A DNA stretch of 64,000 bases from Candidatus Omnitrophota bacterium (GCA_028707125.1 JAQTUX010000002.1:144355-208354), one strand, 5' to 3'; shown: positions 8,482-28,185, numbered from the stretch's first letter. Numbers and translations are program-made. Notes: generated by a model not told the origin, from the sequence alone.

Positions 8482-9186
8482 TTAACGCCAAACAAATACC
8501 TCCTTTAAAACCTGAGTCAAATAAGCCGAGCCCCAGCGCACTATCTGTAATTTTCGCTTACCCCATAACCTGCGCGGCTCATCAGCAGGAATCTCGGTAA
8601 TCCTTAATTTTCTCTTTGCGGCCCTAACCGAAAGAAGAGGCATAATACATATCTTTGTATGAAACAATGCCTCCTCCCGGGAATAATTTTCATCCCTGTC
8701 AAGCTCTAAGTCGCGTATCAACTCCTTTTTAAAAGCGCGGAACATATTCATCGCGTCTGTATACTTGCCTCCGTGAAGCACGTTAATCAAAGAGGTGAAC
8801 ATCCAATTACCGAACGAAGTTATTAAACTGTCATCGTAGCTCCTGGCATCTTTTAAATATCGGGAGGCGATCACCATATCATATCCTTCCTCCATTTTCT
8901 TAACCAGCTGGGGTATGACCTCGGGTTTGCAATTACCGTCCGGACTGAATGGAATGATCACATCCCCTGTTATGCGGCCCAACGCCTCAATGTAGGCGTT
9001 CCTTATACCGGGTTTTTTCTGGACGATAACTGAATAACCGTTCTTCATGGCGTATTCAGCGGTTCCGTCGGTGGATCTTCCATCCACCACGAAAATCTCA
9101 TCCACCCATTCCCTTTTAATCTGCGGCATGATCTGCTTCATGCCGTCTATCTCATTCAAGGTCAATACAAGTAAGGTTGTCTTCAT
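8482..9186 (-). CDS. Family-2 glycosyltransferase, Dpm1/polyprenol-phosphate sugar synthase-like, soluble form.
   Basis: 234 aa. N-terminal GT-A motifs: LLVLTLNE, VVDGRSTDGT. No C-terminal transmembrane segments. Confidence 0.65.
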   Translation of the reverse strand: MKTTLLVLTLNEIDGMKQIMPQIKREWVDEIFVVDGRSTDGTAEYAMKNGYSVIVQKKPGIRNAYIEALGRITGDVIIPFSPDGNCKPEVIPQLVKKMEEGYDMVIASRYLKDARSYDDSLITSFGNWMFTSLINVLHGGKYTDAMNMFRAFKKELIRDLELDRDENYSREEALFHTKICIMPLLSVRAAKRKLRITEIPADEPRRLWGKRKLQIVRWGSAYLTQVLKEVFVWR

Positions 9187-10729
9187 TAAAACTCCTCCGG
9201 TCTGATTTATAAAAGATCTTGTTTCTCAGGTACTTAATAATCGCCAGATCGCCGAAGAACGTGTAGTATTTATTCTTCAGCCTGAATCTGTAATAACGGC
9301 TTATCGGCACATAGGCGATCTTCAACACAGCCCTTAAGAAGGCGTTCCTGATAGAATTGATGACATTAGGCACGGCATTGGCGAGGATGCTCATATAGGA
9401 TATATTTCCCAGCCGTATCCTGTCCTTACGATCAAACCAGGGATTCTTTCTGCCTTCCAGATCATAATCATCGTAAATCCAGTCGATCCACCCCTCCAGC
9501 TGCCGGGGCGCCTTGAGGCCGTTTTTAAGCGCCGACTCATACATTGGCGTCGCCGGCAGGGCCGTATAAATGGCCATGGTCTCAAACAGGGCGTTGGGAT
9601 TATCCCTTTTGAGGCGGAAAGAAAGGTCTATGGTCTTATCGATATCTTCAAATGTTTCACCGGGAAAACCGATCATTAACGCAAAGGCGGGAGTGATCCC
9701 CGCGGCCTTTGCCTTGAGATTGGCCCTGATCGTATCTTCTACCTTTATGCCCTTATTGGAAAGCTCCAGCACCCTGTCTGAACCGGACTCGGCGCCGAAT
9801 TTCAGAACATAGGCGCCGCTCTTTTTTAGAAGCGCCGTCTGCTCATCGCTGGCCTTATTAAAAACATCTACCCGGGTTCCGGATGTATACCAATGGATCT
9901 TCAGGTCATTCCGGATGATCCCTTCGCATATCCTCTGGGCCCTTTCCCGATTGATGTAGAACTCATCGTCCCTTATCCAGATGCCGCTGAGCCCGAATCT
10001 CTTCACCGTATCTACGATGATCCCGAGGCTCTTTTCAACAGACATATCGCGCCATTTCCTCTTTCGCAAACTTGCGCTGCTGCAAAAGCCGCAGTTAAAC
10101 GGGCACCCCCTGCTGGTCTGGCCTATGTCAAGGGTCCTTAAACTTTCCTTTAAATACATATCGGGATGTATGTACTTTTCCACGTCGATCAATCCCCATG
10201 GGACAGGCAATAATCCCTCAACGTCAATCAATGCCCGATCCGGGTTTCTTACGGCCCTGCCGCCGTCCTTGTAGGCAATGCCTTCTATCCCGGAAAGCGA
10301 GCCGCCTGAGGCCAGCGCCCCTACTAACTCCCGGAAGGTAACATCGCCTTCGCCAACGCAGACTATATCCACGTATTCGCTCATCAGGGTTTGCTCCGGC
10401 AGTATAGACGGATGCGGCCCGCCCCAGACTATCGGGACCTTGCCGCCCGCGGCCCTTCGCACGACCTTTGCCGCTTCAATCGCAAAGTGGATCTGCGTGC
10501 CTGTCATTGAAGAGATGCCTACGCATACGGGGCCGGACTTCAATGCCTCGGTTAAATTGCGGCCCCAATCCTTATCCACCCGCTGGTCTATTATACTGAC
10601 CTTATAACCGCCCTTCTGAAGCGGCGCGGCTATGGTTAAAAGAGAATGCGGCACGGCAACGGTTGAGCCGAAATCCATCCCTGTCTTGGGATAAACAAGG
10701 ACTACATCTGCGGCTTTATTTTCCTGCAT
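9152..10729 (-). CDS. Cobalamin-binding (class B) radical SAM enzyme, paralogue 2 of 7.
   Basis: 525 aa. B12-binding N-terminus (VVLVYPKTG...IIDQR...VWGGPHPS) and radical SAM motif TSRGCPFNCGFCS. Confidence 0.85.
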   Translation of the reverse strand: MQENKAADVVLVYPKTGMDFGSTVAVPHSLLTIAAPLQKGGYKVSIIDQRVDKDWGRNLTEALKSGPVCVGISSMTGTQIHFAIEAAKVVRRAAGGKVPIVWGGPHPSILPEQTLMSEYVDIVCVGEGDVTFRELVGALASGGSLSGIEGIAYKDGGRAVRNPDRALIDVEGLLPVPWGLIDVEKYIHPDMYLKESLRTLDIGQTSRGCPFNCGFCSSASLRKRKWRDMSVEKSLGIIVDTVKRFGLSGIWIRDDEFYINRERAQRICEGIIRNDLKIHWYTSGTRVDVFNKASDEQTALLKKSGAYVLKFGAESGSDRVLELSNKGIKVEDTIRANLKAKAAGITPAFALMIGFPGETFEDIDKTIDLSFRLKRDNPNALFETMAIYTALPATPMYESALKNGLKAPRQLEGWIDWIYDDYDLEGRKNPWFDRKDRIRLGNISYMSILANAVPNVINSIRNAFLRAVLKIAYVPISRYYRFRLKNKYYTFFGDLAIIKYLRNKIFYKSDRRSFNEDNLTCIDLE

Positions 10730-10736
10730 AGCTCTC

Positions 10737-12095
10737 CTAAAGAATAAAGGCCAGATTATTCCTGACCCAGCTCAGAATCGGGACGGCCATCACATAGAAT
10801 AAAAGGTTCAACGCCATAATAACGCCTATTATTGCCAATGACAGGTATTTATTTTTGAACTTGCCCCAGATAGTAAATATACCCAGGCTGGCGAATATTA
10901 TCAAATATGGCTCCAGAGGGTAACGATGCCTGGTGTCGCCTGAAAAGATCATAACCATAAAACTGGCATACAAAAATGATAACAGCAGTAATGCGGTGTT
11001 TACGTTCAACCCGGGCCTCACGGCTTTGATTATGCCGACTATACCGAACATAAGAATAATTGAATACCAGATATTATATATCCTCTGCATACCGTTATTA
11101 TAATGCGTCTGAAATACATCCCATAGGCACAATACTTTCTTAAGCAGCAATTTCGGCATGCGCTTATAATCAGCGGCTATAAATTTAATGGCGGTATTCT
11201 TATAGAATTTATCCTGCTCCACTTCGTTCATCCGGCTGATCTGCTTCATTTCTTCATTCGTAAATATCCGGCTGAAATCGCCGAAGGAGCTCCCCTTTGC
11301 ATAAGGGTTATTGCTGTTAAGCAGGGCGCCTCCGCCCATTGTGGAAAAAGGGACGAGCGCCCTGTGCACAAGATAATTTCTAAATGCCCATGGCGAAATA
11401 GTCAGCGTGAAAACAGCGCACATAACCAATATCCCTCTTAACGCGAGCTTAAGCGGATAACGGTATATCAACAATCCGGACAAAAATAGAGGGAAAAAGG
11501 CATTAAACGGCCTTGTTAAGGCAAGCAGGCCCAGAAAAACCCCGGATATAACCGCTCCTTTCATCTTAAGATTTACGAAGAAACCGCTTATCAGGAATAA
11601 TACAAATAAACCATACAAAATGTTGAACAGATTCTCCGAATACAGGAATCCCGGGCCGCCATAAAAGGCATAAGATATATACGGCTGATAAAAGGCAAGT
11701 ATAAGTGCCGACAATAGCCCTATGCGTTCATCAAAGATCTTCCGGCCGATATAATAGATAATAACGCACAATAAAGCGCCCATAATGCTCTGAATGACCC
11801 TTACCGCGACATAATTATGGCCAAAGGCCCGATAGATAGATGCCAGAAACAAGGGATATAAAGGGGTGCGCAAAGATGTCGGCCCCTTTTCCGGATCCAT
11901 GGAATAACCATTGCCTGACGCTAAATTGACGGCTATAGTGTCGTAATCCAGCGCATCAGCTCCCGGTTTTTGCAGGTATCGCGGCAGATTCAAAACAGCC
12001 GCTATGCGCAAAGATAAGGCGGCAACGAAAATTAACAACAAAAGCCGCTTCCTATATCTTGTCCAATTTGAGAATACTGAATTTACCATCATCAT
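10737..12095 (-). CDS. GT-C membrane glycosyltransferase, ArnT/PMT (GT39/GT83-like, PMT_2) family.
   Basis: 452 aa with about 11 predicted transmembrane segments. First-loop signature: ADALDYDTIAVNLASGNGYS...RTPLYPLFLASIY. Confidence 0.6.
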   Translation of the reverse strand: MMMVNSVFSNWTRYRKRLLLLIFVAALSLRIAAVLNLPRYLQKPGADALDYDTIAVNLASGNGYSMDPEKGPTSLRTPLYPLFLASIYRAFGHNYVAVRVIQSIMGALLCVIIYYIGRKIFDERIGLLSALILAFYQPYISYAFYGGPGFLYSENLFNILYGLFVLFLISGFFVNLKMKGAVISGVFLGLLALTRPFNAFFPLFLSGLLIYRYPLKLALRGILVMCAVFTLTISPWAFRNYLVHRALVPFSTMGGGALLNSNNPYAKGSSFGDFSRIFTNEEMKQISRMNEVEQDKFYKNTAIKFIAADYKRMPKLLLKKVLCLWDVFQTHYNNGMQRIYNIWYSIILMFGIVGIIKAVRPGLNVNTALLLLSFLYASFMVMIFSGDTRHRYPLEPYLIIFASLGIFTIWGKFKNKYLSLAIIGVIMALNLLFYVMAVPILSWVRNNLAFIL

Positions 12096-13806
12096 AAACT
12101 TCTGATATCCCTATGTTATTTCTTAAAACAGATTCTTCAACCCTGGATTTTCTTTCCTCATTTCTTACCAGGATGTGATTAAGACGGTATTTACTTAATT
12201 TATCTGCCAGATACTTTCCGTTCAGAAACAGCTTAGATTTTCCCTTGAGATAATCGATATATTCCTGATCTATGCCTCTGCCCCCATATTCTTTGATAGC
12301 GCCCATACAAACAAAATGCGCCCCGTTACCATGTCGGATAAATTCCTCGGCATCTCTGCTGTCATAACCAAACAGCGATAAAGCGATAAAATATCTGTCC
12401 TCCAGTTCTTCTTTAGATCTTATGGTCCCGATAAATAACGGTAGGAATATAAAATTATTTGTATAAAGGAGTATATCGCCTGGTGTCGGGTCTGCCTGCT
12501 TCAATTCATTGAAGGGATCAACAAGCACGACATCATCTTGGCCGGCATGCTCCTTTAGCCAGGAAAACGGCGCTGATAAGGATTGTCTCTGCGCGTATCT
12601 CGCCTTATACACATGATAATAGTGGGTCTGTTGGCTAAGCGCGGATACAGCCATAAGAACCAATATCACTCTAAATGACAATTCCTGCAATAACCTGCTG
12701 CTAACTATCCCTGCCGGCAGCCTCAGGCCGTTTAAGGATGAGAACAGCGCGATTATCAAGAATGTCTTATTGCTGTAACCGAGCCAGTGCCCGGGGAATA
12801 AAGTCATCCCGGAAATCAAATGCTGGTTCGAACAGATCAATCCTCCAGCCAGGAAAGAAACAATGAAAGCAAATCGGATGCTCCTTTTTTCTCTGTAGAA
12901 TGACATGATAAGCAATGTCGGAATTAAATAGAAAGCCGGCAATATCAGTTTGCGGGAATACACAACATCGTTAAAATATCGCAAGGCATCGTAATGAGGA
13001 TGATGCATAACCTGCCGTAAATTCAGCCAGTAAGGAATCGATATTATAAACGATACCGCGATTATCAGCATCATTCTTCGTAACAAAGCGTATTCCTTCT
13101 TTAGTGCGAGCAATATCATTAACACAAACAGGCCGGCATAAATAAACGTCCAATAATATATAAACGCGTAAAATAACGACCCTACCGCAGCTGCGGCAGC
13201 CCACGGGATGAGGCGGCCTCGTGAATAAAGCGCCTTATATACCAAAAGAAGGGATAAAATAAGCATAACATGATTAAACTGCGGGGAAACCGGCCTTAAA
13301 AACCACAATGGTTCAGCATATTTCAAGGTTAATAACTCTTTTAGTATCCATATTTTCCCCGTAAAGAAGCGATAGGCCAGCAATATACCGGCTGAACCCA
13401 GAATGCCAAGGTTCTGCGAACCGCAAAGTTCAAATATGAGACGGTAAATTAACAAAAACAGGACCGCGGGCAAAATAAAGCTCAACAAAATGTCCACCCG
13501 GACAACAGAGAGGCCCAAAACCCTGCCCACAACCCCTGAGAAGGCCTCCGGGAGAAAGCCGAATGTCCATGGCTGCCGGACGTGTTCATAGTTGTCAAAG
13601 CCGGAAAGCGTAGGATTACCTCCTTTATAAAAGGCGTTTACCCTGCCTAAATATTTGTCTTCATCAGAGGTCGTGGTTAAAGAGATACCGCGGTAATCAT
13701 CGCCCAGCTCATAACGGAACCGCATATCCGGATATATGTATATGCACCCGATCACGGCCGCAAGCGCAAGCAATAATACAATCTTCCGCAGTCCTTTACC
13801 CGGCAT
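12052..13806 (-). CDS. Integral membrane protein of unknown function, possibly a GT-C-like glycosyltransferase or a polymerase.
   Basis: 584 aa. It has an N-terminal signal or transmembrane segment, then about 10 hydrophobic helices, then a ~150-aa soluble C-terminal domain. It lies between two ArnT-like genes. Confidence 0.4.
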   Translation of the reverse strand: MPGKGLRKIVLLLALAAVIGCIYIYPDMRFRYELGDDYRGISLTTTSDEDKYLGRVNAFYKGGNPTLSGFDNYEHVRQPWTFGFLPEAFSGVVGRVLGLSVVRVDILLSFILPAVLFLLIYRLIFELCGSQNLGILGSAGILLAYRFFTGKIWILKELLTLKYAEPLWFLRPVSPQFNHVMLILSLLLVYKALYSRGRLIPWAAAAAVGSLFYAFIYYWTFIYAGLFVLMILLALKKEYALLRRMMLIIAVSFIISIPYWLNLRQVMHHPHYDALRYFNDVVYSRKLILPAFYLIPTLLIMSFYREKRSIRFAFIVSFLAGGLICSNQHLISGMTLFPGHWLGYSNKTFLIIALFSSLNGLRLPAGIVSSRLLQELSFRVILVLMAVSALSQQTHYYHVYKARYAQRQSLSAPFSWLKEHAGQDDVVLVDPFNELKQADPTPGDILLYTNNFIFLPLFIGTIRSKEELEDRYFIALSLFGYDSRDAEEFIRHGNGAHFVCMGAIKEYGGRGIDQEYIDYLKGKSKLFLNGKYLADKLSKYRLNHILVRNEERKSRVEESVLRNNIGISEVYDDGKFSILKLDKI

Positions 13807-13815
13807 ATCTATCGA

Positions 13816-15111
13816 TCACCATAAATGAATCTTTTCCATAAATGACCTTGCGAATATCTTCGCCTGATAAGAGTTAAAATATATGAAAAGATTCAGAAGA
13901 AGATACGACCCCGTCAACAGGACACCGTAAATCCTCCTGGAAAACCTTAAAACAAAATAGTAGATTCCCGCCGAAGCGATAATAATGATATACGGCTCCA
14001 CCGGCAGGCGGAACCTGGGAGAGCCGTACATGATCAATGTGATGAAAACGGCGTAGATTACAGGCAGATACACGGGCAGCAGTTCCTTGAGCCTCCTGCG
14101 CGTGATAAATATACCATAGATAAAAAACGGCATTATAAAAACGTACATAAAATTATATATCCCGTATCCGATGATCTCCCAGTCAAACGGAGACCAGAAA
14201 AATCCGAGCTTTAACAGCTCCAGCTTAAGTACCTTCAGCGGATTGCGCCTGATATATTTCAACGCCTCCCTTGCCAGAAAGTCGCTTCGTTCTGCTTCGG
14301 AATCCAACAGGTCGGCCTTTTTAGTCGTATCGTCCTTAGGGTGCAGCCCGAATAATTTACCGTTCTGCGGAACATATGAGCCGTATAGGCCCATGCCCGT
14401 CTTATTGGTGATCAATGTAAATCTATGATGCAGCTGAGAATTCCTTATTATCCAGGGCAATATCGGCAGCAGGAAAAAGGCCACAAAAATAAGTACCCCT
14501 GCCAAAATTTGCCTGATATTATACCATTTGGGGAACATCGCCCTGCCTGATAACGATAAAATAAACAGGGGGAATAAAACCAGCATATCGCGGACCATAA
14601 CAGCAAGCCCTAATACTATGCCAAGGACGACTAGATTCCTGAAAGTATGTTTCCGAAGCTGCCTTAGCAAAAGAAACATCGCTATAACGAGCAGAAAAGT
14701 AAAAAGATTTTCATTTCTCAGGTACTGCGAAATCTTGACAAACCCCGGGTTGAAACAGGCGATCAAGGCGCTTATCAGGGCAACCCTTGTATTAAAGATA
14801 TCCTTTGATATTAAGAATATTACGGCGCAGACCACTGCCCCTGATAATATCTGGATAATTATCAACGCGGAATAATTATGGTTAAATGAATAAAGCACCG
14901 AGGCGATAAAGAACGGGTAAAGCGGCGGATGGCATGAGGTTGCCTGCCCGTTGATCGAATAGCCCCGCCCATCAAGGACATTCTGCGCCAATTCCCCATA
15001 CCCCTCCACGTCGCCCGGCGTTATATGTAAAACGGGGAGAAGCAAAATCAACCTTACCAAGAACGCGCCGACGATGATCACGAATATAAGCCTTGCGTCT
15101 TTCATGGTCAT
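13816..15111 (-). CDS. GT-C membrane glycosyltransferase, ArnT/PMT_2-like; paralogue of the gene at 10737-12095.
   Basis: 431 aa, multi-pass membrane protein. Loop signature: GDVEGYGELAQNVLDGRGYS...HPPLYPFFIASVLY. Confidence 0.6.
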   Translation of the reverse strand: MTMKDARLIFVIIVGAFLVRLILLLPVLHITPGDVEGYGELAQNVLDGRGYSINGQATSCHPPLYPFFIASVLYSFNHNYSALIIIQILSGAVVCAVIFLISKDIFNTRVALISALIACFNPGFVKISQYLRNENLFTFLLVIAMFLLLRQLRKHTFRNLVVLGIVLGLAVMVRDMLVLFPLFILSLSGRAMFPKWYNIRQILAGVLIFVAFFLLPILPWIIRNSQLHHRFTLITNKTGMGLYGSYVPQNGKLFGLHPKDDTTKKADLLDSEAERSDFLAREALKYIRRNPLKVLKLELLKLGFFWSPFDWEIIGYGIYNFMYVFIMPFFIYGIFITRRRLKELLPVYLPVIYAVFITLIMYGSPRFRLPVEPYIIIIASAGIYYFVLRFSRRIYGVLLTGSYLLLNLFIYFNSYQAKIFARSFMEKIHLW

Positions 15112-16103
15112 AAGATACCTTCTAACCCCGAATATATTATCTGCGCCATCTTTTCGTTGCCTTGATCTGAGAAATGGGCGATATCGCTGAAATATTTACA
15201 GCGAGATTCATAATCCAGGGATTCAAAAAATGAAGAACAATCCAGCAGGCGGGCGTTATTTTCCCCGCAGACACCCTCGATTATATCGATAGTATCCCTG
15301 TATCTCTGCGAATCATAATCCCTGGCAGGATACTTAACTACTATGGGCATTATATTGTTTTGCCTGCATATCATTATCATCTCTCTCAGATCTCCGGCAA
15401 AGACCGGCAAAAGGTCCTTATAGACCTCATCAAATTTACCCGCCCCGGACGCGTTCTGTCTGTTGTTAAACAGGCCGCCGATGGCGTTTTTCAGTTTTAA
15501 ATAAACAATGCTGTTATCTACCAGGAAATTGTTAACCCTCGCGGAAATGGGCAATCCTTTAAAGTAGACATTTCCCGGCACCCAGCTGTATTTCGACTTC
15601 AGGCAGCCGACCAGGTTCCAACCGGTAAAGATAATCACCGCATCCGGCTCAAGCGCCAATATGTCTTTCCTCAACCTGGCAGCCAGATTGCTCGAACCAT
15701 AGCCGCAGACGCCCGCATTCAATACTTCGTAGTCCGGCGGCTGCGAGCCATTATTAAGGAGCCCTTCCAGGATCTGCGGCCAGACCTTCGCGTTGTCAAA
15801 CTGCTCCTGGCCAAAGGTAGTGGATTCTCCCAGGCAGACGATCCTGACCTTATTGCCTTTATTTATATCAAAATGGCCTTTTCTCATACCCCGATAGCAT
15901 AATCCATGCTTACCTTTATATTGAGCGCTTATCTTATAACCTAAGGCCTCATCGCCCTCATAAAGAAAGGATTCCTTATAACCGAAATGGTGTTTTTGAT
16001 AAAAATACCATCTCCCTGAAAGCTCTAATAGAAACAGGAAAAGAAATGTAAAGGCCAAAGACATTAAAAGTACCCTGATATTCTTCATTTCATTATTATC
16101 CAA
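15108..16103 (-). CDS. SGNH/GDSL-family hydrolase, a candidate sugar O-acyl esterase or transferase, with an N-terminal membrane anchor.
   Basis: GDS(L) block IVCLGESTTFG. The D..H catalytic block appears as DIAHFSDQGNEKMA. The N-terminus is a hydrophobic helix. Confidence 0.55.
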   Translation of the reverse strand: MDNNEMKNIRVLLMSLAFTFLFLFLLELSGRWYFYQKHHFGYKESFLYEGDEALGYKISAQYKGKHGLCYRGMRKGHFDINKGNKVRIVCLGESTTFGQEQFDNAKVWPQILEGLLNNGSQPPDYEVLNAGVCGYGSSNLAARLRKDILALEPDAVIIFTGWNLVGCLKSKYSWVPGNVYFKGLPISARVNNFLVDNSIVYLKLKNAIGGLFNNRQNASGAGKFDEVYKDLLPVFAGDLREMIMICRQNNIMPIVVKYPARDYDSQRYRDTIDIIEGVCGENNARLLDCSSFFESLDYESRCKYFSDIAHFSDQGNEKMAQIIYSGLEGIL

Positions 16104-17473
16104 TGAAAGAACCTCTTTAAGAGGAACCCGAAATGCCTGAAGGACTTGATCCCCAAAAGATTCTTCAATATTATGCGCGGCCTGGTATAAAACTTCAGGA
16201 ACGCCGATCGCTGTAATGACCTGAGCTGCTTATTGGATAATCCCCCATGGCTGTAAGGGGCGCTCATAAAATAAAATCTGTCCCAGTTAACCTTATTGAT
16301 CTCGCCGCTAGAAACCAGCCCGCTGTAACTTTCGGTCCCGGGAAACGGCAGATACGTGAAATAATTAGCCCGAATCAAGCCAAGGTCCAATGAGAAGCGT
16401 ATCGTCTTTTTTATATCTTCGACGGTCTCTCCGGGAAAACCGATAATAAAAAATCCTGCTATATCTATACCGAAGCGGTGTATCAACTCTATGCCTTCGC
16501 GGATCTTCTTGAGCGTTACGTTCTTTTTCATAAGGCCCAGGACCCTGTCGGAACCGGATTCTATGCCTAAAGATATTAAATAAAGCCCGCTCTCCTTCAT
16601 CAACTTCAGCAATTCTTCGTCCAGGCTGTCGATACGCACCCCGTTGGGAGTAGCCCAGCTGATATCCAGGCCCAGGTCAATAAGTTTCCTCAAGAACTCT
16701 TTGGCGTAAACCTTATCAAAAATAAAGTTATCATCGATAATATGGAACTCCCTGATCTTGTGCCTGTCATACAAATATTTTATCTGGTTAATTATAAAAT
16801 CCGGGCTATGTCTTCGTATCCGCCTCCCCGATACGATATGCCCCGCGCAAAAGGTGCAGGCAAATGGGCATCCGCGCGTAAGCATGATCGGGGCAATGGG
16901 GAATTTCTTGAAAAACGCCCCATGCTGGGACTCAGGGTATTCTTCCGGCCGGATCAGGTCCCAGGCCGGCATGCCTAAAGTATCCAGATCGTCGACAAAT
17001 TCCCGCTGGTTTATCTTAATCGTGCCGTCGTCCCTGAAGGCCAGCCCGGGAATGCCGGAGATGCCGGCCGACGAACTGCCGCTCAATTTATCAAGCAATA
17101 ACGGCAGCGCCCTTTCCGCTTCTCCCACAAAAATAAAATCCAAAGAATCGTTAAAATACTCAAAACTTTCCCTGGGAAGCGCCGAAGGATGCGGCCCTCC
17201 TATCGCCGTAATAATCCCCCTCCTGTAACTCCTGCACTCGCACAATGCCTCTCTGATAAAGTCCATGTCAAAGGTATAACATTGGAAACCCACAAAATCG
17301 GGATTATAGCTTTTAAGCGCGTTCTTAAACTGACCTATTTTTATATTCTCCTTTATACAGTCCAGTATCCTGACGTCGCCCCTGCTCCTTATGGCTCCGG
17401 CCAGATAGCCCAGGCCCAGCGACGGTTGTATATGGTCGGTTAAGTTATACGGTTTTACCAATAGCGTCTTCAT
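16085..17473 (-). CDS. Cobalamin-binding (class B) radical SAM enzyme, paralogue 3 of 7.
   Basis: 462 aa. The N-terminus is MKTLLVKPYN...ILDC...AIGGPHPS. Radical SAM motif: TRGCPFACTFCA. Confidence 0.85.
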   Translation of the reverse strand: MKTLLVKPYNLTDHIQPSLGLGYLAGAIRSRGDVRILDCIKENIKIGQFKNALKSYNPDFVGFQCYTFDMDFIREALCECRSYRRGIITAIGGPHPSALPRESFEYFNDSLDFIFVGEAERALPLLLDKLSGSSSAGISGIPGLAFRDDGTIKINQREFVDDLDTLGMPAWDLIRPEEYPESQHGAFFKKFPIAPIMLTRGCPFACTFCAGHIVSGRRIRRHSPDFIINQIKYLYDRHKIREFHIIDDNFIFDKVYAKEFLRKLIDLGLDISWATPNGVRIDSLDEELLKLMKESGLYLISLGIESGSDRVLGLMKKNVTLKKIREGIELIHRFGIDIAGFFIIGFPGETVEDIKKTIRFSLDLGLIRANYFTYLPFPGTESYSGLVSSGEINKVNWDRFYFMSAPYSHGGLSNKQLRSLQRSAFLKFYTRPRIILKNLLGIKSFRHFGFLLKRFFHWIIMK

Positions 17474-18980
17474 TGCTCTGTGATAATGCCTTATCTTGCG
17501 CGAGTGAATATATATACTGCGATCTGATAAACATGGTTATCGATTCTTTCATGCGAATATAAAGGTTCCTGCCGATAGATAAAAAGAATATGGAAACTAC
17601 CCTGGTAAAGGCATTGATGGGTATCCTTTTTATCAAAGGATGCAGGAAATCCGGCGTCTTTGTCAGTATCGGTATCAACACCTGCAGCCTTTTGGCCTCC
17701 TCTACCTCCACATTCTGCAACAGGCTGCCTTCTTTCATATTCCTAAGGTCGGTATCTTTCCTGAGGGCGCTTTCGCCGTTACAGATCCTTTCATAAATGT
17801 CCTTACGCAAAAACCCGTTTTGAAGGCAAAAATCGGTCAATTCCGTGTGGGGAAACGGGTAAAAGATGGTCATGATCGTGCCGTCGGGTTTTATCCGCCT
17901 GTTCAGATCATATGTCTGCCACATCTGTTCGCGCGTTTCAGTCGGGAAACCGACTATGTTTAACGTGCAGAACCTGATCCCGACCTCCTTCAATGTTCTG
18001 GACGTATTAACGATATCCTCGTTGCTCATATTTCTTTTAAGCAGCTTGCGCCTGAGCTCTTCATTACCCGACTCTATGCCGATATCCGTATAGATGCATC
18101 CGGCCTCCGCCAGCTGCCTCATCGTGTCTTTCTTCACGGCCTGAGGGTGCACCATTATCTTGAAGGGAAGCCGTATATCTCTTTTATAGATCTCGCAGAA
18201 TCTCCTTACCCAGTCCTCGTTTATGGTGAATATGTCATCGTAGAAGAATACCTCTTTTATCTTATACCTGTCCTTGAAGAACCTGAGCTCGCTGATAACG
18301 TTTTCCACGCTTCTGCGGCGGACGTATGGTTTGCCGCTGATATTAAATAACTTTCTGTAGTGCGAATTGAAACAGTAAGTGCACTGATGAGGGCATCCCC
18401 TGCCGCTCATCACATATAACCTGTCGGAAAAGCAACCGTATTTCCTGAAGCCGTCTTTGTCCGGGAACGGCAGCGAATCCAGGTCCTGAATAAGCGGCCG
18501 CGACGGATTACGCACGACCTCGCCGTCGCGCTTAAACCATATATTTCTTGTAGAATAGTCCACATCACCCTTCTGCATGCCGTTGACGAGTTCAAGCATC
18601 GCCTCCTCGCCTTCGCCCACGCATATCATATCAATATTGGGGTTTTTTATGACATATGCAGGCAGTATAGTCGGATGTATCCCTCCCACTATAATCGGGA
18701 CATCCATACGCTGCTTTATAAGACCTGCCATTTTGGATACCCAGGGATATAGATTGGTCAGGCAGGAAAAGGCTATTAAATCGGGGGAATACTCCTCGGC
18801 CCTTCTGACCATCTTCTCGCCGACGTCAAAGAACCTGTCCAGGACTTTAAACCTGTATTCTATGTCCCCTGAACCCGGGTCAAAAAGCAGCTCTGTCTGG
18901 TGCCCGGCATTCTTAAGGACGCTGGATAAATATTCTATGCCCAGCCACTCAGCGTTCCTGTGAAAAAATAACACCTTCAT
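17445..18980 (-). CDS. Cobalamin-binding (class B) radical SAM enzyme, paralogue 4 of 7, in tandem with paralogue 3.
   Basis: 511 aa. The N-terminus is MKVLFFHRN...IVGGIHPT. Radical SAM motif: SGRGCPHQCTYCF. Confidence 0.85.
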   Translation of the reverse strand: MKVLFFHRNAEWLGIEYLSSVLKNAGHQTELLFDPGSGDIEYRFKVLDRFFDVGEKMVRRAEEYSPDLIAFSCLTNLYPWVSKMAGLIKQRMDVPIIVGGIHPTILPAYVIKNPNIDMICVGEGEEAMLELVNGMQKGDVDYSTRNIWFKRDGEVVRNPSRPLIQDLDSLPFPDKDGFRKYGCFSDRLYVMSGRGCPHQCTYCFNSHYRKLFNISGKPYVRRRSVENVISELRFFKDRYKIKEVFFYDDIFTINEDWVRRFCEIYKRDIRLPFKIMVHPQAVKKDTMRQLAEAGCIYTDIGIESGNEELRRKLLKRNMSNEDIVNTSRTLKEVGIRFCTLNIVGFPTETREQMWQTYDLNRRIKPDGTIMTIFYPFPHTELTDFCLQNGFLRKDIYERICNGESALRKDTDLRNMKEGSLLQNVEVEEAKRLQVLIPILTKTPDFLHPLIKRIPINAFTRVVSIFFLSIGRNLYIRMKESITMFIRSQYIYSLAQDKALSQSNEDAIGKTV

Positions 18981-19682
18981 CTAACCCTCTCTCTCTAATC
19001 TATGTTTCAATATGACAAATACCGCCATAAATCCGTCTCTCCATGAGATCTTCTTGCCCTCCCTGTATCCGCGGGGACGATATGAAATCGGGACTTCATG
19101 GATCCGGAACCCTTTCTTGATCAGCTTAACGGTTATTTCCGGTTCCATCTCAAACCCCTGCGCCGTTAAATTTATTTTTTTTAACGCGTCCCTCTTGATC
19201 AATTTGTAACATGTCTCCATATCAGTGATCTTTGTGCCGAAAAGCAAATTGACCAGGAAATTGAGAAACTTATTGCCAAAAAGATGAGTAAAATGAAACA
19301 ACCGCCTGCATGACAACAAGCTATTCTTATTCAAAAACCTTGAGCCGTATACGACATCCGCGCCCTCTTCAAGGATTGGCCTTAATAACCGCGGATATTC
19401 CCGAGGGTCATATTCAAGGTCCGCGTCCTGGATGATCAGGGCATCGCCGGTTGCGTGCTTGAAGCCGGTGCTTAAGGCAGCGCCCTTTCCCCTGTTTTTA
19501 TCATGAAAGAACACCTTTATCCCGTCCTCCTTAAATCCCTGCAGCAGCTCTTTTGTGCCGTCTGCGGAGCAATCATCCACCACAATGATCTCTTTTTCTA
19601 TGCCGACGTCCCTGACCCTGCGGATGACCTCGCTTATGGTATTTACTTCGTTATAAACGGGGATGACAACCGATATCTTCAT
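18981..19682 (-). CDS. Family-2 glycosyltransferase, Dpm1-like polyprenol-phosphate sugar synthase.
   Basis: MKISVVIPVYNEVNTI...VVDDCSADGT, with DAD/DxD-like motifs. 233 aa. Confidence 0.7.
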   Translation of the reverse strand: MKISVVIPVYNEVNTISEVIRRVRDVGIEKEIIVVDDCSADGTKELLQGFKEDGIKVFFHDKNRGKGAALSTGFKHATGDALIIQDADLEYDPREYPRLLRPILEEGADVVYGSRFLNKNSLLSCRRLFHFTHLFGNKFLNFLVNLLFGTKITDMETCYKLIKRDALKKINLTAQGFEMEPEITVKLIKKGFRIHEVPISYRPRGYREGKKISWRDGFMAVFVILKHRLEREG

Positions 19683-19683
19683 T

Positions 19684-20622
19684 TCAGGCGCCCTTTGTTC
19701 CCATCATAGTTATCTCATTCTCCAGGATCTTGATCTTCCCGAACCCCGATTCCTCAAACCAGCGAAATACCTCCCAGTGGGTATGCTTTGATTGATACTT
19801 CGGGGAATACCAATCAAAGGTATCCAGGACCCTCCATCTCCAGTCCTTCCACATGGGTATGACAAACAGCATCTTGCAGATGCTGCCTAAAACCGGGATC
19901 CTGTAAAGATAATAAAGAGGCACGGCAATAAAACTCAGGTAATAAAGGATCCTTTTCGGCAGCCTGGTCGTAAAAAAACGCCAGAATGCCGAAGAGTAGA
20001 CGATCCCTTTATTATAGGAACTATAAACAAAAATAGACATTTCGCCGCGCGGCTTTACTAATCCGGCTATGTGCCTGAATGCCTTCGCCGCGTCAGGCGT
20101 GTGATGCAGCACGCCAAAACTGAAGATAAAGTCAAAGGCCTCTTCGGCAAAAGGAAGGTTAAACAGGTCGGCCTGAATAAAATGCGCGCAAGGATGCCTG
20201 CCCATGTTCTTAAATGCCACATCTACGGAAAAACTCAAGTCCACTCCCACTACCGTCGCTCCGTTCTTAAGGGCCACCTCCGAAAATCTTCCCGTGCCGC
20301 AACCCGCATCCAAAACCAGTTTTCCCTTTAACTGCGACAGAGGAAAATCAACCCTGCCCTGGAATTGGCGCGATGAAATATCATATCCGCTGAAACTGTC
20401 TACCTGCGTCCTGTTATGCACCTGCCACTCAAAACTGAAGCTCTTCACATACTTGTCTTCCGAAACGAACCGCGGGATGAAATCGACTATGTTGAACTTC
20501 TTTCCGCAGCCGCTTATAAGAAGCCCTGTTTTCACCTCTGCTTGCTCCATGACCTCATCGCGCAGCGTCAGAGGGCCTTTGCATTCCGGGCAGACCAGAT
20601 GATCAAGCAATCCCTTCTTCAT
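19684..20622 (-). CDS. Class I SAM-dependent methyltransferase with an N-terminal Trm112-like zinc-ribbon.
   Basis: HLVCPECKGPL (Trm112-like) is followed by motif I, VLDAGCGTGRF. The C-terminal ~90 aa are hydrophobic. Confidence 0.65.
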   Translation of the reverse strand: MKKGLLDHLVCPECKGPLTLRDEVMEQAEVKTGLLISGCGKKFNIVDFIPRFVSEDKYVKSFSFEWQVHNRTQVDSFSGYDISSRQFQGRVDFPLSQLKGKLVLDAGCGTGRFSEVALKNGATVVGVDLSFSVDVAFKNMGRHPCAHFIQADLFNLPFAEEAFDFIFSFGVLHHTPDAAKAFRHIAGLVKPRGEMSIFVYSSYNKGIVYSSAFWRFFTTRLPKRILYYLSFIAVPLYYLYRIPVLGSICKMLFVIPMWKDWRWRVLDTFDWYSPKYQSKHTHWEVFRWFEESGFGKIKILENEITMMGTKGA

Positions 20623-23786: not shown

Positions 23787-24581
23787 TTACGGATTGCCAT
23801 GCAATATAGATACATACCTATAACTTCCCGCCGATAGCTCTTTAAATATTCTCAGGCCTGCCTTTTTATAGAGTCTTCTGCATTCTCCGCGGCTCCTGAG
23901 ATAACCGCTGAACTTCCCCTTATAACTGTCTTTTTTAACCAGAGGCTTCCCCAACATCATCCTAATAAAAGAAGATTCTTTAAGAGGCCACAATAAATAT
24001 GAATTAAAAAGTTTGTCTAAACAGATTACCCCTCCTTGAAAATCCATTATTTCTTTACACCCTATTTCTTTCAATCTCTTAAACAGGAGGATAAAATTAT
24101 CGTCATCCATAACGTATGAAGAGCCTAAAAAAACTGCCAAATCAATTCCACCGGGCAGCAGTTTATCTTTAATCTCTCTCACGTCATCTTTAAAAAAGTC
24201 AAACCTGACAGGAGTTATACCGGGCAACAATTCTTTTGCCTTATCAATCAAATAAGGGTCAAAATCAGCCGCCACAACTTTGGAATTCCCAGGAAGTCCG
24301 AATCTAAGTAAATATTCCGAAATACAGTTGCCGGCGCCCAACGAAAGGATATTCGTAAATCCCTTTTTATTAATATAGTCCATTAAAAAGCCTATGTCAG
24401 AAAGCCTTTTGCCATCTCCGGACAAGGCCCAAAACAAAAGGCCCTCCCTTGATTTAAATCTATCGGCAAACTCTTTCTCCATTACATAGGCATGTTCTTC
24501 GGCACTGAATATCTCCCCTTTATTATCTACCTGCCTGAGTAGATCCAGATTATGACCTTTAGTATAATATTTTATTTTCAT
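23787..24581 (-). CDS. Probable class I SAM-dependent methyltransferase.
   Basis: NILSLGAGNCISEYLL fits motif I. VVAADFD fits the acidic motif II. It otherwise has no recognisable family. Confidence 0.4.
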   Translation of the reverse strand: MKIKYYTKGHNLDLLRQVDNKGEIFSAEEHAYVMEKEFADRFKSREGLLFWALSGDGKRLSDIGFLMDYINKKGFTNILSLGAGNCISEYLLRFGLPGNSKVVAADFDPYLIDKAKELLPGITPVRFDFFKDDVREIKDKLLPGGIDLAVFLGSSYVMDDDNFILLFKRLKEIGCKEIMDFQGGVICLDKLFNSYLLWPLKESSFIRMMLGKPLVKKDSYKGKFSGYLRSRGECRRLYKKAGLRIFKELSAGSYRYVSILHGNP

Positions 24582-26011
24582 CGGAGAATCTTCTCAATGA
24601 GTCTGTTTAATAACAATACGGGGTGTTTTCTATACAATTTTAGCCTGAGACGATTGTAACCTTGTTTAAAAACTCTCCTGATATCCTCTCCATCCCAAGC
24701 ATCCGTAGAAATACTGCAACTTGTAATATATAGATCGTCCAAAAAATCATTACTGATATAACCCTTCTTCAAACAAATAGTATAAAGTTCTGAACCTGGA
24801 TAGGGAGCAGCCACGGAAACAAAGGGATCGTAAATACCTAAATCTTCTGCAAAGCGATAACTTTCTTTCATCTGCTGAATCGTTTCCCCCGGCATGCCGA
24901 TTATGAGAAAGATATTAACATCAAGATCTATGCTCTTTGCATATTTGATTAACGACTTAACCTTTTTTAAATCTACCGGCTTTTTTAGGATGTTCTTAAG
25001 GACATCCTCGCTTCCCGACTCAACCGCGATATTCAACTTATAGCAGCCCGCCGCCTGCATCTTATCGATCGTGGGCTCATCCAGAGAAAAGGCAGCGACC
25101 CCGTTTGGGGTATCCCACTTAAAACCCATCTTCTCCTTTATCATCAGGTCAAATATCTCATTGCTGCGTTTGACGTCCAAAGTAACATTGTCATCTTCGA
25201 ACAGGAGCTCCTCGATGCCGTATTTATTCTTCAGTTCCGCCATTTCGTCAATGACGTTCCTCGGGCTTCTTTTGCGGAACATCTTTCCCCATACCCTGTG
25301 GGCGCTGCAGAATGTGCAGCCTATGGGGCAGCCGCGGGAGGTAATGATGGGAGAGAACCTTTCACAGCGCCTCATTCCGTGCGAGGACTTCAAGCCAAAA
25401 TATTTCTCCATGGCCAGCAAGTGGCGCGCGGGAAAAGGCAACGCATCTAAATCCTGTATAAATCTTGTTTTTGGTATAAGTTTTACGCTGCCGTTATCTC
25501 TATATGCTATTCCGTCAAGGCCCGAGACCTCTTTCTCGCCTTCTATGGCCCTGATCAATTCAAGGAACGTCTGTTCACCCTCGCCGATCACCACAAAATC
25601 GACATTCTTGTCGGATAAGACCGCCTCCGGCATAACAGTAGGGTGCGCGCCGCCGGCAACGGTAATAATGCCCCCGCTTATTTTCTTGGCTAATTTGTAA
25701 ATGGCATGCCCGTTTTCCCTCTGCCTTGTGAATAGATTATTCACCCCTACTATATCAGGCGAAAAATCTTTGATAAACCCGGCGATCTCATCAAAGCCCA
25801 AACCAACCCTTATGATGTTATCTTTTATTTCTGCCCTGTTATCCCATCCCTCCATTAAACAATCTACGATCTTCACCTTTATGTTCTCATTTTCCAGGAC
25901 CGCGGCAAGATATGCCAGCCCTAACGGAGGAAGCGGATTGATATCCGGATCATCCTTAAAGGTAAACGCCGGAGGAACAAATAAAAGTACCTTTTTAATT
26001 TGTCTTTTCAT
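24578..26011 (-). CDS. Cobalamin-binding (class B) radical SAM enzyme, paralogue 5 of 7.
   Basis: B12-binding N-terminus, radical SAM motif TSRGCPIGCTFCS. I moved the start to the ATG at 26011 (MKRQIKKVLLFVPP). A GGTGA RBS precedes it, and the change removes the overlap with the cyclase gene. The ORF track extends it to 26047. Confidence 0.8.
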   Translation of the reverse strand: MKRQIKKVLLFVPPAFTFKDDPDINPLPPLGLAYLAAVLENENIKVKIVDCLMEGWDNRAEIKDNIIRVGLGFDEIAGFIKDFSPDIVGVNNLFTRQRENGHAIYKLAKKISGGIITVAGGAHPTVMPEAVLSDKNVDFVVIGEGEQTFLELIRAIEGEKEVSGLDGIAYRDNGSVKLIPKTRFIQDLDALPFPARHLLAMEKYFGLKSSHGMRRCERFSPIITSRGCPIGCTFCSAHRVWGKMFRKRSPRNVIDEMAELKNKYGIEELLFEDDNVTLDVKRSNEIFDLMIKEKMGFKWDTPNGVAAFSLDEPTIDKMQAAGCYKLNIAVESGSEDVLKNILKKPVDLKKVKSLIKYAKSIDLDVNIFLIIGMPGETIQQMKESYRFAEDLGIYDPFVSVAAPYPGSELYTICLKKGYISNDFLDDLYITSCSISTDAWDGEDIRRVFKQGYNRLRLKLYRKHPVLLLNRLIEKILR

Positions 26012-26675
26012 AAAATTCACCGAAAACAGTGCAGGGGGCGCTGTCAACGCCCTTTATAAATAATGGGACCGCGTATACAGCCCTCAGATCATCAAACCTG
26101 CCTTCAAGATTCAAGCCCTCTATTAAAAACAATGGGCCGCCGGGGAAACCATCTTCCTTTAACAATATCCCGTGGGCCTGCCTTCCGGCCTCGCGGTTTT
26201 GGAAGGCGGAAAATGAGATCGCGTCTATGCCGGCCGCCTTGAGAAAGGGATATTCCGATCTAAGCAGCCTTGCCGCTTCAGCGGATATGCCGGGATTATG
26301 CTTCATATATTTCTCATCCTTCCTGTATTTATAAAACCCCGTCCTGAATAGAACCAGGTCGCATCCATCTGGTATCCCGCGCACATCATCCTCGGATATC
26401 AACTCGTCCTTATCCTTCGGGCGATCTATGATATGCGGACGGCTGAAAATAAAATCGGTTATTGGAAATTCCGCTATCGGCCTGCCCGTATCATAAAAAT
26501 GCCTGGGCGCGTCAATATGAGTGCCGGCATGGTTTGAAAGACCGACCTCAAATGTGTTGCAGGAGTCATTTCTCTTTATCTGTTTGTCCGGTTTTATTTC
26601 AAATAACCCGGCTCCGCCGTAGAAGGGCATGCCCTCTTCTAATGGATACGATAGCAATCTATACTTTCCGGCCAT
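25995..26675 (-). CDS. Cyclase-family protein (putative metal-dependent hydrolase, kynurenine-formamidase-like).
   Basis: The HxGTHxDxPxH motif is present as SNHAGTHIDAPRHF. 226 aa. Confidence 0.6.
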   Translation of the reverse strand: MAGKYRLLSYPLEEGMPFYGGAGLFEIKPDKQIKRNDSCNTFEVGLSNHAGTHIDAPRHFYDTGRPIAEFPITDFIFSRPHIIDRPKDKDELISEDDVRGIPDGCDLVLFRTGFYKYRKDEKYMKHNPGISAEAARLLRSEYPFLKAAGIDAISFSAFQNREAGRQAHGILLKEDGFPGGPLFLIEGLNLEGRFDDLRAVYAVPLFIKGVDSAPCTVFGEFYEKTN

Positions 26676-27303
26676 TGATCAATTTTTCCAGATCAAACAT
26701 ATCATTAATAAGCGAATCTGCCTCTAATCCTGAAAAACGTTGTCCCTCCCGTACCCGGCCGATAAACCTGATGCCCGCCTTTTGCGCCGCCTCATGATCA
26801 TCTATGGAATCGCCTACAAAAACCGCCTCTCGCGCAGCTAAGCCGTATTTCTCAAGGACCCCAGAAATCAGGTTCTGCTTTTTAGCGGGCGAACCAAAGA
26901 CCTCGCAAAAAAATTTCTCCAATCCGCGCTCCTTTACAATAAAGGCGATCTCTTCCTGCGGAGTGCCCGAAACAACAAACAGCGATATCTTTTTATAATA
27001 CTTGGCTAAAAATTCCTGAGCGCCTTTAACAAAGGGGCATCTTATTACCTCCTGGCACACATAGTCCTTGAATTTAATGCCAAGTTCCTCGCTCAACCCT
27101 TCAGAAAAAGGCAGGCGGAGGATATTCTTGTAAATATGCTCAAACTTTTCAAAGCGCGATATGCCGCCGTGAAGCAAGTGCCACTCAACGATAGCGTCTA
27201 TGTGCCGGGGATAATCCTTGAATAAATGAGCGAACGCCCTCGTCTTTATATCCACCGACTCCACGATGACGCCGTCAAAGTCAAAAATAACCGCCTTAAT
27301 CAT
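26659..27303 (-). CDS. HAD-superfamily hydrolase or phosphatase (beta-phosphoglucomutase-like subfamily).
   Basis: The DxDGV motif appears as VIFDFDGVIVES. The C-terminus has VFVGDSIDDHEAAQKAG. Confidence 0.75.
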   Translation of the reverse strand: MIKAVIFDFDGVIVESVDIKTRAFAHLFKDYPRHIDAIVEWHLLHGGISRFEKFEHIYKNILRLPFSEGLSEELGIKFKDYVCQEVIRCPFVKGAQEFLAKYYKKISLFVVSGTPQEEIAFIVKERGLEKFFCEVFGSPAKKQNLISGVLEKYGLAAREAVFVGDSIDDHEAAQKAGIRFIGRVREGQRFSGLEADSLINDMFDLEKLINGRKV

Positions 27304-28184: not shown

Positions 28185-28185
28185 T

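Follow-up and report, generated by a model that had tools for sequence, protein, structure and literature searches.

Why should two cobalamin (B12)-binding radical S-adenosylmethionine (SAM) genes overlap each other and run directly into the gene for a membrane-anchored SGNH/GDSL hydrolase, in the midst of glycosyltransferase genes? This arrangement is found in a stretch of 64,000 nucleotides from Candidatus Omnitrophota bacterium (GCA_028707125.1 JAQTUX010000002.1:144355-208354), referred to here in its whole length as the window. An earlier, sequence-only reading of this DNA had suggested that the two radical enzymes, here called R4 and R3, may form a two-step tailoring unit, and that their juxtaposition with the SGNH protein reflects tailoring by both radical chemistry and acylation. 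Our analysis shows that the R4-R3-SGNH trio is a mix-and-match assembly within a larger module that runs from a GT2 to a GT-C glycosyltransferase, rather than a fixed unit of three genes, and that the central radical enzyme of this module is R3. As to function, we see an even chance that the three genes are translated together and serve a side-branch glycosylation module of the lipid-carrier (three-component) type, with accessory radical and acyl-editing enzymes. The genes of the module are the following, listed from upstream to downstream (aa, amino acids; TM, transmembrane):

19684..20622, minus strand: class I SAM methyltransferase, 312 aa (Pfam Methyltransf_11, E 4.6e-22), upstream of GT2_233
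18981..19682, minus strand: GT2_233, a small Dpm1/AglJ/ArnC/PpgS-like GT2 (Pfam Glycos_transf_2, E 4.4e-40)
17445..18980, minus strand: R4, B12-binding radical SAM protein, 511 aa (Radical_SAM E 7.6e-28, B12-binding E 1.1e-20)
16085..17473, minus strand: R3, B12-binding radical SAM protein, 462 aa (Radical_SAM E 9.9e-27, B12-binding E 2e-16)
15108..16088, minus strand: SGNH/GDSL hydrolase, 326 aa from the ATG (Lipase_GDSL_2 E 2.2e-12)
13816..15111, minus strand: GTC_431, PMT_2-type GT-C with ~10 TM helices (PMT_2 E 1.7e-17, PMT E 1.5e-09)
12052..13806, minus strand: MEM_584, polytopic membrane protein with ~8 TM helices and a C-terminal domain of ~190 aa
10737..12095, minus strand: PMT2_452, second PMT_2-type GT-C (Pfam PMT_2, E 4.1e-10)

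The TAG stop codon of GT2_233 abuts the ATG of R4, and ATGA overlaps are found at both the R3/SGNH and the SGNH/GTC_431 junctions. Given the abutting GT2_233/R4 pair and the ATGA overlaps on either side of the SGNH gene, these genes appear to be translationally coupled. The most likely start of the SGNH gene is the ATG at 16088, which creates the ATGA overlap with the R3 stop codon and agrees with the database gene call; an alternative TTG at 16103 (open reading frame [ORF] then 15108-16103) is less likely. The start codon of R3 was confirmed by an invariant M1 and a conserved N terminus across its orthologues. The overlap of 29 nt between R4 and R3 (17445-17473), which the sequence-only reading had pointed out, is real, and it results from ~20 additional aa at the C terminus of the window's R4, which its orthologues (484 to 496 aa) lack. 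At other loci, which carry L numbers throughout, the R4/R3 junction is a 4-nt ATGA overlap (L010) or a 4-nt gap (L011). We therefore rejected the 29-nt overlap as a special feature of the pair, as it reflects a lineage-specific extension of R4.

Are R3 and R4 then a pair by descent? Both domains place the two proteins in the class B cobalamin-dependent radical SAM superfamily, for which cobalamin binding and methyl transfer are predicted. The Radical_SAM domain (PF04055) scored 94.6 bits in R3 and 98.2 bits in R4 (cut-off, 29.5), and the B12-binding domain (PF02310) scored 60.4 bits in R3 (residues 16 to 126) and 74.1 bits in R4 (residues 11 to 131; cut-off, 32.1). The CX3CX2C motif reads CPFACTFC in R3 (C202/C206/C209) and CPHQCTYC in R4 (C196/C200/C203) and is invariant in both orthologue alignments. 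The two proteins are mutually diverged, as had been noticed from the sequence: they share 26% identity (115 to 118 bits), far below the identities to their respective orthologues (54 to 77% for R3 and 62 to 72% for R4). In the same BLAST matrix, the best paralogue of R3 was R5 (32%, 228 bits) and that of R4 was R6 (31%, 183 bits). Whether R3 and R4 are each other's closest relatives could be answered by a neighbour-joining tree of the seven B12-binding radical SAM paralogues of the window (R1 to R7) and their orthologues, with 100 bootstraps. They were sisters in 0 of the 100 replicates; R3 and its orthologues grouped together in all 100, this clade joined R5 in 82, and the R4 clade joined R6 in 100. 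By this tree, R3 and R4 are members of different, anciently separated subfamilies, and a recent tandem duplication, which we had considered, is rejected by matrix and tree alike.

The nearest solved structures by sequence are 9CCB (the glutamine C-methyltransferase QCMT/MgmA), AprD4, TokK, and CysS, with 9CCB the best relative of R3 (E 3e-29) and AprD4 that of R4 (E 4e-24). The closest solved relatives are thus cobalamin C-methyltransferases and one sugar-modifying enzyme, AprD4, which has the same domain layout and is not known to use cobalamin. In an NCBIfam equivalog scan that covered HpnJ, BchE, the Sden_1168/PhpK P-methyltransferases, ApyD, MgmA, HpnR, and BzaD, neither protein reached a family cut-off; the best scores were 167 bits against 575 for R3 (Sden_1168) and 140.7 bits against 750 for R4 (ApyD). 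R4 is 100% identical to the NCBI entry 'MAG: radical SAM protein [Candidatus Omnitrophica bacterium]'. Like the known class B enzymes (QCMT/MgmA 9CCB, TokK, CysS, TsrM, and GenK, and the non-methylating BchE, HpnJ, OxsB, and AprD4), R3 and R4 have an N-terminal B12-binding domain followed by a CX3CX2C radical SAM core. Unlike them, they stand in a context of cell-surface glycan assembly and carry conserved basic/hydrophobic C-terminal tails. No TM helix was predicted in either protein, and the tails suggest membrane association.

R3 belongs to a large and unusually conserved family, with 2446 database proteins at E<=1e-30; the best 120 of these are all at least 58% identical to R3 and 456 to 472 aa long, and those with a source name come mostly from Omnitrophota. 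We fetched 80 loci from species-representative genomes of Omnitrophota, Nitrospinota, Planctomycetota/Phycisphaerae, Elusimicrobiota, Spirochaetota, and other phyla and annotated them against the window proteins, which gave 76 R3 orthologues. In 31 of the 76, the gene immediately upstream of R3 encodes a GT2_233 orthologue (45 to 53% identity, ~232 aa). Of the GT2-R3 loci, 25 extend for 2.5 kb or more beyond R3, and in 24 of these a PMT_2-type GT-C follows within 3 kb. Directly after R3, 27 of the 76 encode a small protein of 117 to 135 aa with one N-terminal TM helix and no Pfam match. This small protein has a conserved EGSIxKRRAxYYLYP region and occupies the slot of the SGNH gene between R3 and the GT-C; examples are L046:11464-11868, L026:11383-11736, L031:11380-11757, and L053:11445-11852.

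GT2_233 is a probable polyprenyl-phosphate sugar synthase, since its best NCBIfam matches are all to polyprenyl-phosphate glycosyl synthases: AglJ (141 bits), ArnC-type (72), dolichyl-phosphate hexose transferase (68), and PpgS (65). Taken together with the census, this synthase-like character of GT2_233 indicates that R3 is a conserved radical enzyme between a Dpm1-like GT2 and a GT-C. The GT2-R3-GT-C association is widespread and uncharacterised. At the other end of the module, GTC_431 is probably a periplasmic transferase that uses a lipid-linked sugar; it scored 64.5 bits against PMT_2, and PMT2_452, with ~7 predicted TM helices, scored 40.6 (cut-off, 26.1). Orthologues of GTC_431 directly follow R3 in L010, L011, and L059. 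At the position of PMT2_452, L001 has an orthologue with 58% identity, and L010 and L011 have a PMT_2 protein in the equivalent place. The methyltransferase upstream of GT2_233 has a 77% identical orthologue in the corresponding place in L001, and a methyltransferase gene adjoins the GT2 in L007, L008, L010, L011, and L173. MEM_584 has orthologues beside the GT-C in L001 (54%) and L076 (37%); it gave no significant match in Pfam (ETR1_N E 0.0075, 17 bits against 27), in NCBIfam, or among PDB sequences, and its comparison with a GT-C profile was not significant (hhalign probability, 1.9%).

If R3 is the core, what are R4 and the SGNH protein? The sequence-only reading took R4 and R3 for a possible two-step unit, and in its strictest form this would make them an obligate pair with the SGNH protein as a dedicated partner that O-acylates or de-O-acylates the same sugar. 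We consider this highly improbable. The three genes do overlap and appear translationally coupled, the catalytic residues of the SGNH protein are intact, and the adjacency of R4 and R3 recurs: the order GT2-methyltransferase-R4-R3-GT-C is found in L010 (GCA_041643015.1), L011 (a JGI metagenome), and L059 (Omnitrophica WOR_2 GWF2_43_52). L095 was dropped as a further independent case and counted together with L059, since its identity values match exactly and it is apparently the same sequence. However, none of these three R4-R3 loci has an SGNH gene, and R4 is directly upstream of R3 in 1 of the 76 representative genomes (L059), leaving R3 without R4 in about 75. Conversely, R4 orthologues occur without R3 in L012 and L093. 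The closest syntenic relative, L001, keeps the order GT2...R3 (77%)-SGNH (66%)-GT-C (60%)-MEM (54%)-PMT_2 (58%) and has, in place of R4 (window 17445-18980), four unrelated genes between the GT2 and R3 (L001:5205-8604), which encode a short-chain dehydrogenase/reductase (SDR), a GNAT acetyltransferase, a DegT aminotransferase, and a cytidine monophosphate (CMP)-type cytidylyltransferase. The placement of R3 and R4 in different clades also speaks against such a pair. Of the two-step unit, then, the recurrent adjacency stands, and the comparison weighs against an obligate dependence. Glycan loci across many uncultured lineages contain more distant R4 relatives (35 to 50% identity), frequently next to other B12-binding radical SAM genes in a tandem arrangement.

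The proposed joint unit of radical chemistry and acylation fared no better. SGNH homologues in L002-L005 and L173 are flanked by a GT2 and a membrane protein and have no radical SAM gene as a neighbour, and the SGNH gene is absent from the other R4-R3-GT-C loci. A radical SAM gene is directly upstream of the SGNH gene in 2 of the 5 contexts that we compared (window, L001, L002, L005, and L173), while a GT-C or GT-C-like membrane protein is directly downstream in all 5. This protein is GTC_431 or its orthologue in the window, L001 (60%), and L173 (51%); for L002 and L005 the corresponding product is a membrane protein of 436 to 438 aa with a profile that can be aligned with the GT-C core (hhalign probability 86%, E 5e-6). 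At a short distance upstream of the SGNH gene, the window, L001, L002, and L173 encode a Dpm1-like GT2, and in L005 a C-terminal GT2 fragment abuts the SGNH gene. The SGNH gene thus goes with the GT-C and is not tied to radical SAM genes, and both R4 and the SGNH gene are optional accessory cassettes, included or omitted genome by genome.

We then asked what the SGNH protein itself may do. It scored 48.3 bits against Lipase_GDSL_2 (cut-off, 32.9) and has one hydrophobic N-terminal helix (residues 6 to 24); the strings IVCLGESTTFG and DIAHFSDQG and the N-terminal anchor, on which the sequence-only reading had based its assignment, are all present. Its catalytic blocks are complete and conserved. 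Block I (CLGES(89)TT) has a Ser89 that is invariant in 9 of 9 aligned homologues, as is G129 of block II (NAGVCG(129)YG) in 9 of 9 sequences. In block III (G156-W-N158) all three residues are invariant in 5 close homologues, and D302 and H305 of block V (D302-I-A-H305) are invariant in the same 5 close homologues and present in 3 distant full-length ones. An AlphaFold2 (AF2) model (mean predicted local distance difference test [pLDDT], 74.8; predicted template modelling score [pTM], 0.75) has the SGNH fold, a three-layer alpha/beta/alpha arrangement. Among its 50 best matches in a Foldseek search of the PDB, it matched GDSL esterases with probability 1.00 and target-normalised TM-scores of 0.63 to 0.82; it superposes on GDSL esterases, acetyl-xylan esterases, and TesA at 12 to 18% identity, and a profile search of PDB sequences agrees with this fold. 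The protein may therefore be an accessory acyl esterase or transferase, as predicted from motifs and model. It resembles the known esterases (Axe2, AlAXEase, and TesA, and the anchored AlgJ, PatB, and OafA-SGNH) in all four blocks, in fold, and in its single N-terminal anchor. It differs from them in its low identity to any solved structure, in a two-helix insertion of ~60 residues (positions 180 to 243), and in being constantly paired with a GT-C, a pairing that we did not find described.

The SGNH subfamily is rare: a search of 5.8 billion proteins gave 6 close clusters, and one of 1.84 billion proteins gave 15 representative clusters at E<=1e-30. An alignment-based scan of 185,579 species-representative genomes gave 70 pattern matches, of which 0 were confirmed, indicating that the subfamily is absent or rare in representative genomes. 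The wider group of N-terminally anchored SGNH proteins counts 2575 members at E<=1e-10, and among the best 150 SGNH representatives, 118 relatives of 300 to 420 aa have a single N-terminal anchor. Several more distant anchored SGNH paralogues lie in the comparison loci without being adjacent to R3 (L020:19194-20489, L023:6673-7581, L024:3368-4552, L046:1324-2388, L054:5253-6425, and the ends of L008 and L012), and anchored SGNH esterases appear to be recurrent accessories of R3-containing glycan loci.

An N-terminal anchor followed by an SGNH domain is also the architecture that we take to resemble AlgJ, PatB, and the SGNH domain of OafA. The protein could accordingly form the periplasmic part of an O-acetylation system with two components, of the PatA/PatB, AlgI/AlgJ/AlgX, or OafA type, in which it would transfer to the glycan the acetyl groups handed over by a membrane acyl-translocase. 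A marginal profile match to AlgX (4knc, E 0.026) would fit, as would the wider SGNH family, in which the positive-inside rule favours an N-in/domain-out orientation in 63 proteins versus 28, with 27 ties, a weak lean. However, no MBOAT or Acyl_transf_3 (AT3) protein was found when Pfam was run on the 58 minus-strand ORFs of the window that encode 150 aa or more, and none is among the gene calls of the SGNH-bearing loci L001, L002, L005, and L173, which argues against a pair of the PatA/PatB or AlgI/AlgJ type. The closest structures, moreover, are soluble acetyl esterases and thioesterases and not PatB or AlgX. We regard this explanation as improbable.

These observations on domain content, catalytic motifs, translational coupling, and gene neighbourhoods are the ground for the glycosylation module that we favour, whose lipid-linked substrate, reaction types, order of steps, and membrane side of the SGNH domain we infer. 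On the cytoplasmic side of the membrane, GT2_233 would charge polyprenyl phosphate with a sugar. R3, and here also R4, would modify the lipid-linked sugar by radical chemistry before export, and from what is usual for class B enzymes C-methylation would be the most likely reaction. The anchored SGNH protein would then remove or transfer an acyl group of either donor or product, and GTC_431 and PMT2_452 would transfer the tailored sugar to an acceptor outside the cytoplasm.

The main competing explanation is that R3 and R4 act on soluble nucleotide-sugar precursors, much as GenK and AprD4 act on aminoglycoside sugars, that GT2_233 uses the modified nucleotide-sugar, and that the SGNH protein works at a later stage, on the completed glycan. 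In favour of this, nucleotide-sugar genes abound in the window (DegT aminotransferases, epimerases, cytidylyltransferases, and NeuB), AprD4 is a sugar-modifying enzyme among the closest solved relatives, R3 and R4 lack predicted TM helices, and adjacency to a GT2 is also expected of a donor-synthesis enzyme. On the other hand, the three Dpm1/GtrB-type GT2s of the window each abut a B12-binding radical SAM gene (GT2_233-R4, GT2_234-R2, and GT2_309-R7), whereas its two TuaG/WcaA-type GT2s abut none. In at least 24 genomes R3 is located between a GT2 and a GT-C and not among nucleotide-sugar genes, and the C-terminal tails of R3 and R4 would fit work at the membrane. We therefore hold action on soluble precursors to be unlikely, if still the most serious competitor.

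The two other GT2-radical SAM pairs of the window are arranged as follows. R2 (9152-10729) precedes GT2_234 (8482-9186, AglJ-like), and GT2_309 (55464-56393, PgfS-like with 293 bits, two C-terminal TM helices) precedes R7 (53901-55439), with a 569-aa, 6-TM protein of no family match just upstream of GT2_309 (56396-58105). The logic of GT2, radical SAM enzyme, and membrane protein may thus occur three times in the locus.

How does the module compare with known systems? Three-component periplasmic glycosylation systems have been described (PMC11127046), and in these, auxiliary enzymes such as the ORF13 epimerase and DprE1/E2 edit the polyprenyl-phosphate sugar between the synthase and the GT-C (PMC11127046). 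We compared the module with GtrA/GtrB/Gtr*, ArnC/ArnD/ArnEF/ArnT, the mycobacterial PpgS/Rv3632/Rv3779, and the Citrobacter ORF15/14/12/13 systems. The likeness lies in a small Dpm1-like GT2 beside a PMT_2-type GT-C, in auxiliary enzymes between synthase and transferase, and, in the common form of the R3 module, in a small membrane-anchored protein. ArnD is another auxiliary enzyme between synthase and transferase, and in its small anchored protein the R3 module may resemble PpgS/Rv3632. In contrast to these systems, the module of the window has no adjacent GtrA/SMR/MATE flippase gene and has two or three GT-C-like membrane proteins in series, and its auxiliaries are cobalamin radical SAM and SGNH enzymes, neither of which occurs in the systems of PMC11127046, where they are epimerases.

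Several points weigh against a lipid-carrier module. Gene adjacency is equally expected if the radical enzymes act on a nucleotide-sugar donor, and a GT2 neighbour is missing from many R3 orthologues, including ones from Nitrospinota and Phycisphaerae. The lipid-phosphate acceptor is deduced for GT2_233, which stays under every NCBIfam equivalog cut-off (AglJ, 141 versus 325 bits) and has no TM helix. Likewise, methylation is a prior from class B, as no radical SAM protein of the window attains a curated family cut-off, R3 and R4 score 3- to 5-fold under every NCBIfam equivalog cut-off, and their relatives BchE, HpnJ, OxsB, and AprD4 catalyse other chemistry. The topology of the SGNH protein is ambiguous, with a tie of 3 versus 3 K/R by the positive-inside rule in the close family. 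Finally, Pfam detected no GtrA, SMR, or MATE family in 10737-20622, and the only Wzx-like gene is ~20 kb away from the module.

We also looked at the setting of the module. Every sizeable ORF of the window is on the minus strand, and the 58 that encode 150 aa or more are all credible genes, many of them with stop and start codons that overlap or abut those of their neighbours. The GC skew is below 0 in every 2-kb bin. The window is thus a single co-directional, tightly packed glycan-biosynthesis array of at least 63 kb. A Pfam scan identified genes for deoxythymidine diphosphate (dTDP)-rhamnose and for nonulosonic acid, the latter comprising NeuB, a uridine diphosphate N-acetylglucosamine (UDP-GlcNAc) 2-epimerase, a PseB-like dehydratase, a HisH/HisF-like pair, three DegT aminotransferases, and two CMP-type cytidylyltransferases. 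The same scan found many GT2 and GT4 glycosyltransferases and methyltransferases, and the Wzx-like flippase gene at 37016-38569. Seven B12-binding radical SAM proteins are encoded, the number given by the sequence-only reading, plus one radical SAM protein without a B12 domain. Besides R3 and R4, the seven are:

4338-5810, minus strand: R1, B12-binding radical SAM protein
9152-10729, minus strand: R2, B12-binding radical SAM protein
24578-26047, minus strand: R5, B12-binding radical SAM protein
31782-33308, minus strand: R6, B12-binding radical SAM protein
53901-55439, minus strand: R7, B12-binding radical SAM protein

R1 is preceded by nucleotidyltransferase, GHMP kinase, and epimerase genes and followed by genes for the alpha and beta subunits of a thiamine pyrophosphate (TPP)-dependent E1 enzyme and for a DAO-type flavin adenine dinucleotide (FAD) oxidoreductase (window 1134-5810), surroundings that could serve the synthesis of a sugar that is branched or unusual in another way. 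Among the paralogues, R5 comes nearest to the Sden_1168 family of B12-radical SAM P-methyltransferases (320 bits; cut-off, 575). Genes for a cyclase, a HAD phosphatase, an epimerase, and a D-2-hydroxyacid dehydrogenase follow it (window 24578-29094), parts of this set recur in L011 and L020, and the set hints at a separate tailoring pathway, possibly related to phosphonates. Four more ORFs of 393 to 578 aa gave no Pfam match (29107-30843, 35056-36237, 40348-41559, and 50219-51931). The last has 6 predicted TM helices and no NCBIfam match either, and homologues of the 578-aa product, with 26% identity, occur in two Omnitrophota loci, L008 and L020.

We found no literature that links B12-binding radical SAM enzymes to polyprenyl-linked, GT-C-dependent, or polysaccharide glycosylation, although coverage was incomplete and this is weak evidence. 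A review of B12 radical SAM enzymes from 2026 makes no use of the words glycan, polysaccharide, or sugar, and in an Omnitrophota genome preprint radical SAM domains figure only in a Pfam count. R3-type proteins make up a large orthologous family that is so far uncharacterised, with members in Omnitrophota, Nitrospinota, Planctomycetota, Elusimicrobiota, and other phyla at 50 to 77% identity. We tentatively propose, as a possibility on the doubtful side, that these proteins act after a Dpm1-like synthase and before a GT-C and edit a sugar donor linked to polyprenyl phosphate, for instance by C-methylation. This would be the first case of radical SAM tailoring in lipid-carrier glycosylation of the cell surface, with R4-type enzymes as optional modules for extra editing and GT-C-coupled SGNH proteins as optional modules for acyl editing. 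The minimal unit on which this can be tested consists of four genes, the GT2, R3, the small anchor protein, and the GT-C.

Glycosylation through a lipid carrier is a general route by which bacteria decorate their surface glycans, and the auxiliary enzymes known so far are epimerases and a deformylase. If our proposal is correct, radical SAM and SGNH auxiliaries would widen the chemistry available on lipid-linked sugar donors, and C-methylated or otherwise radical-modified surface sugars would become possible. A function would then be at hand for a very abundant, unnamed family of radical SAM proteins (more than 2400 in the database at E<=1e-30), and this would help to explain why the glycan loci of Omnitrophota contain so many paralogues of B12-binding radical SAM enzymes.

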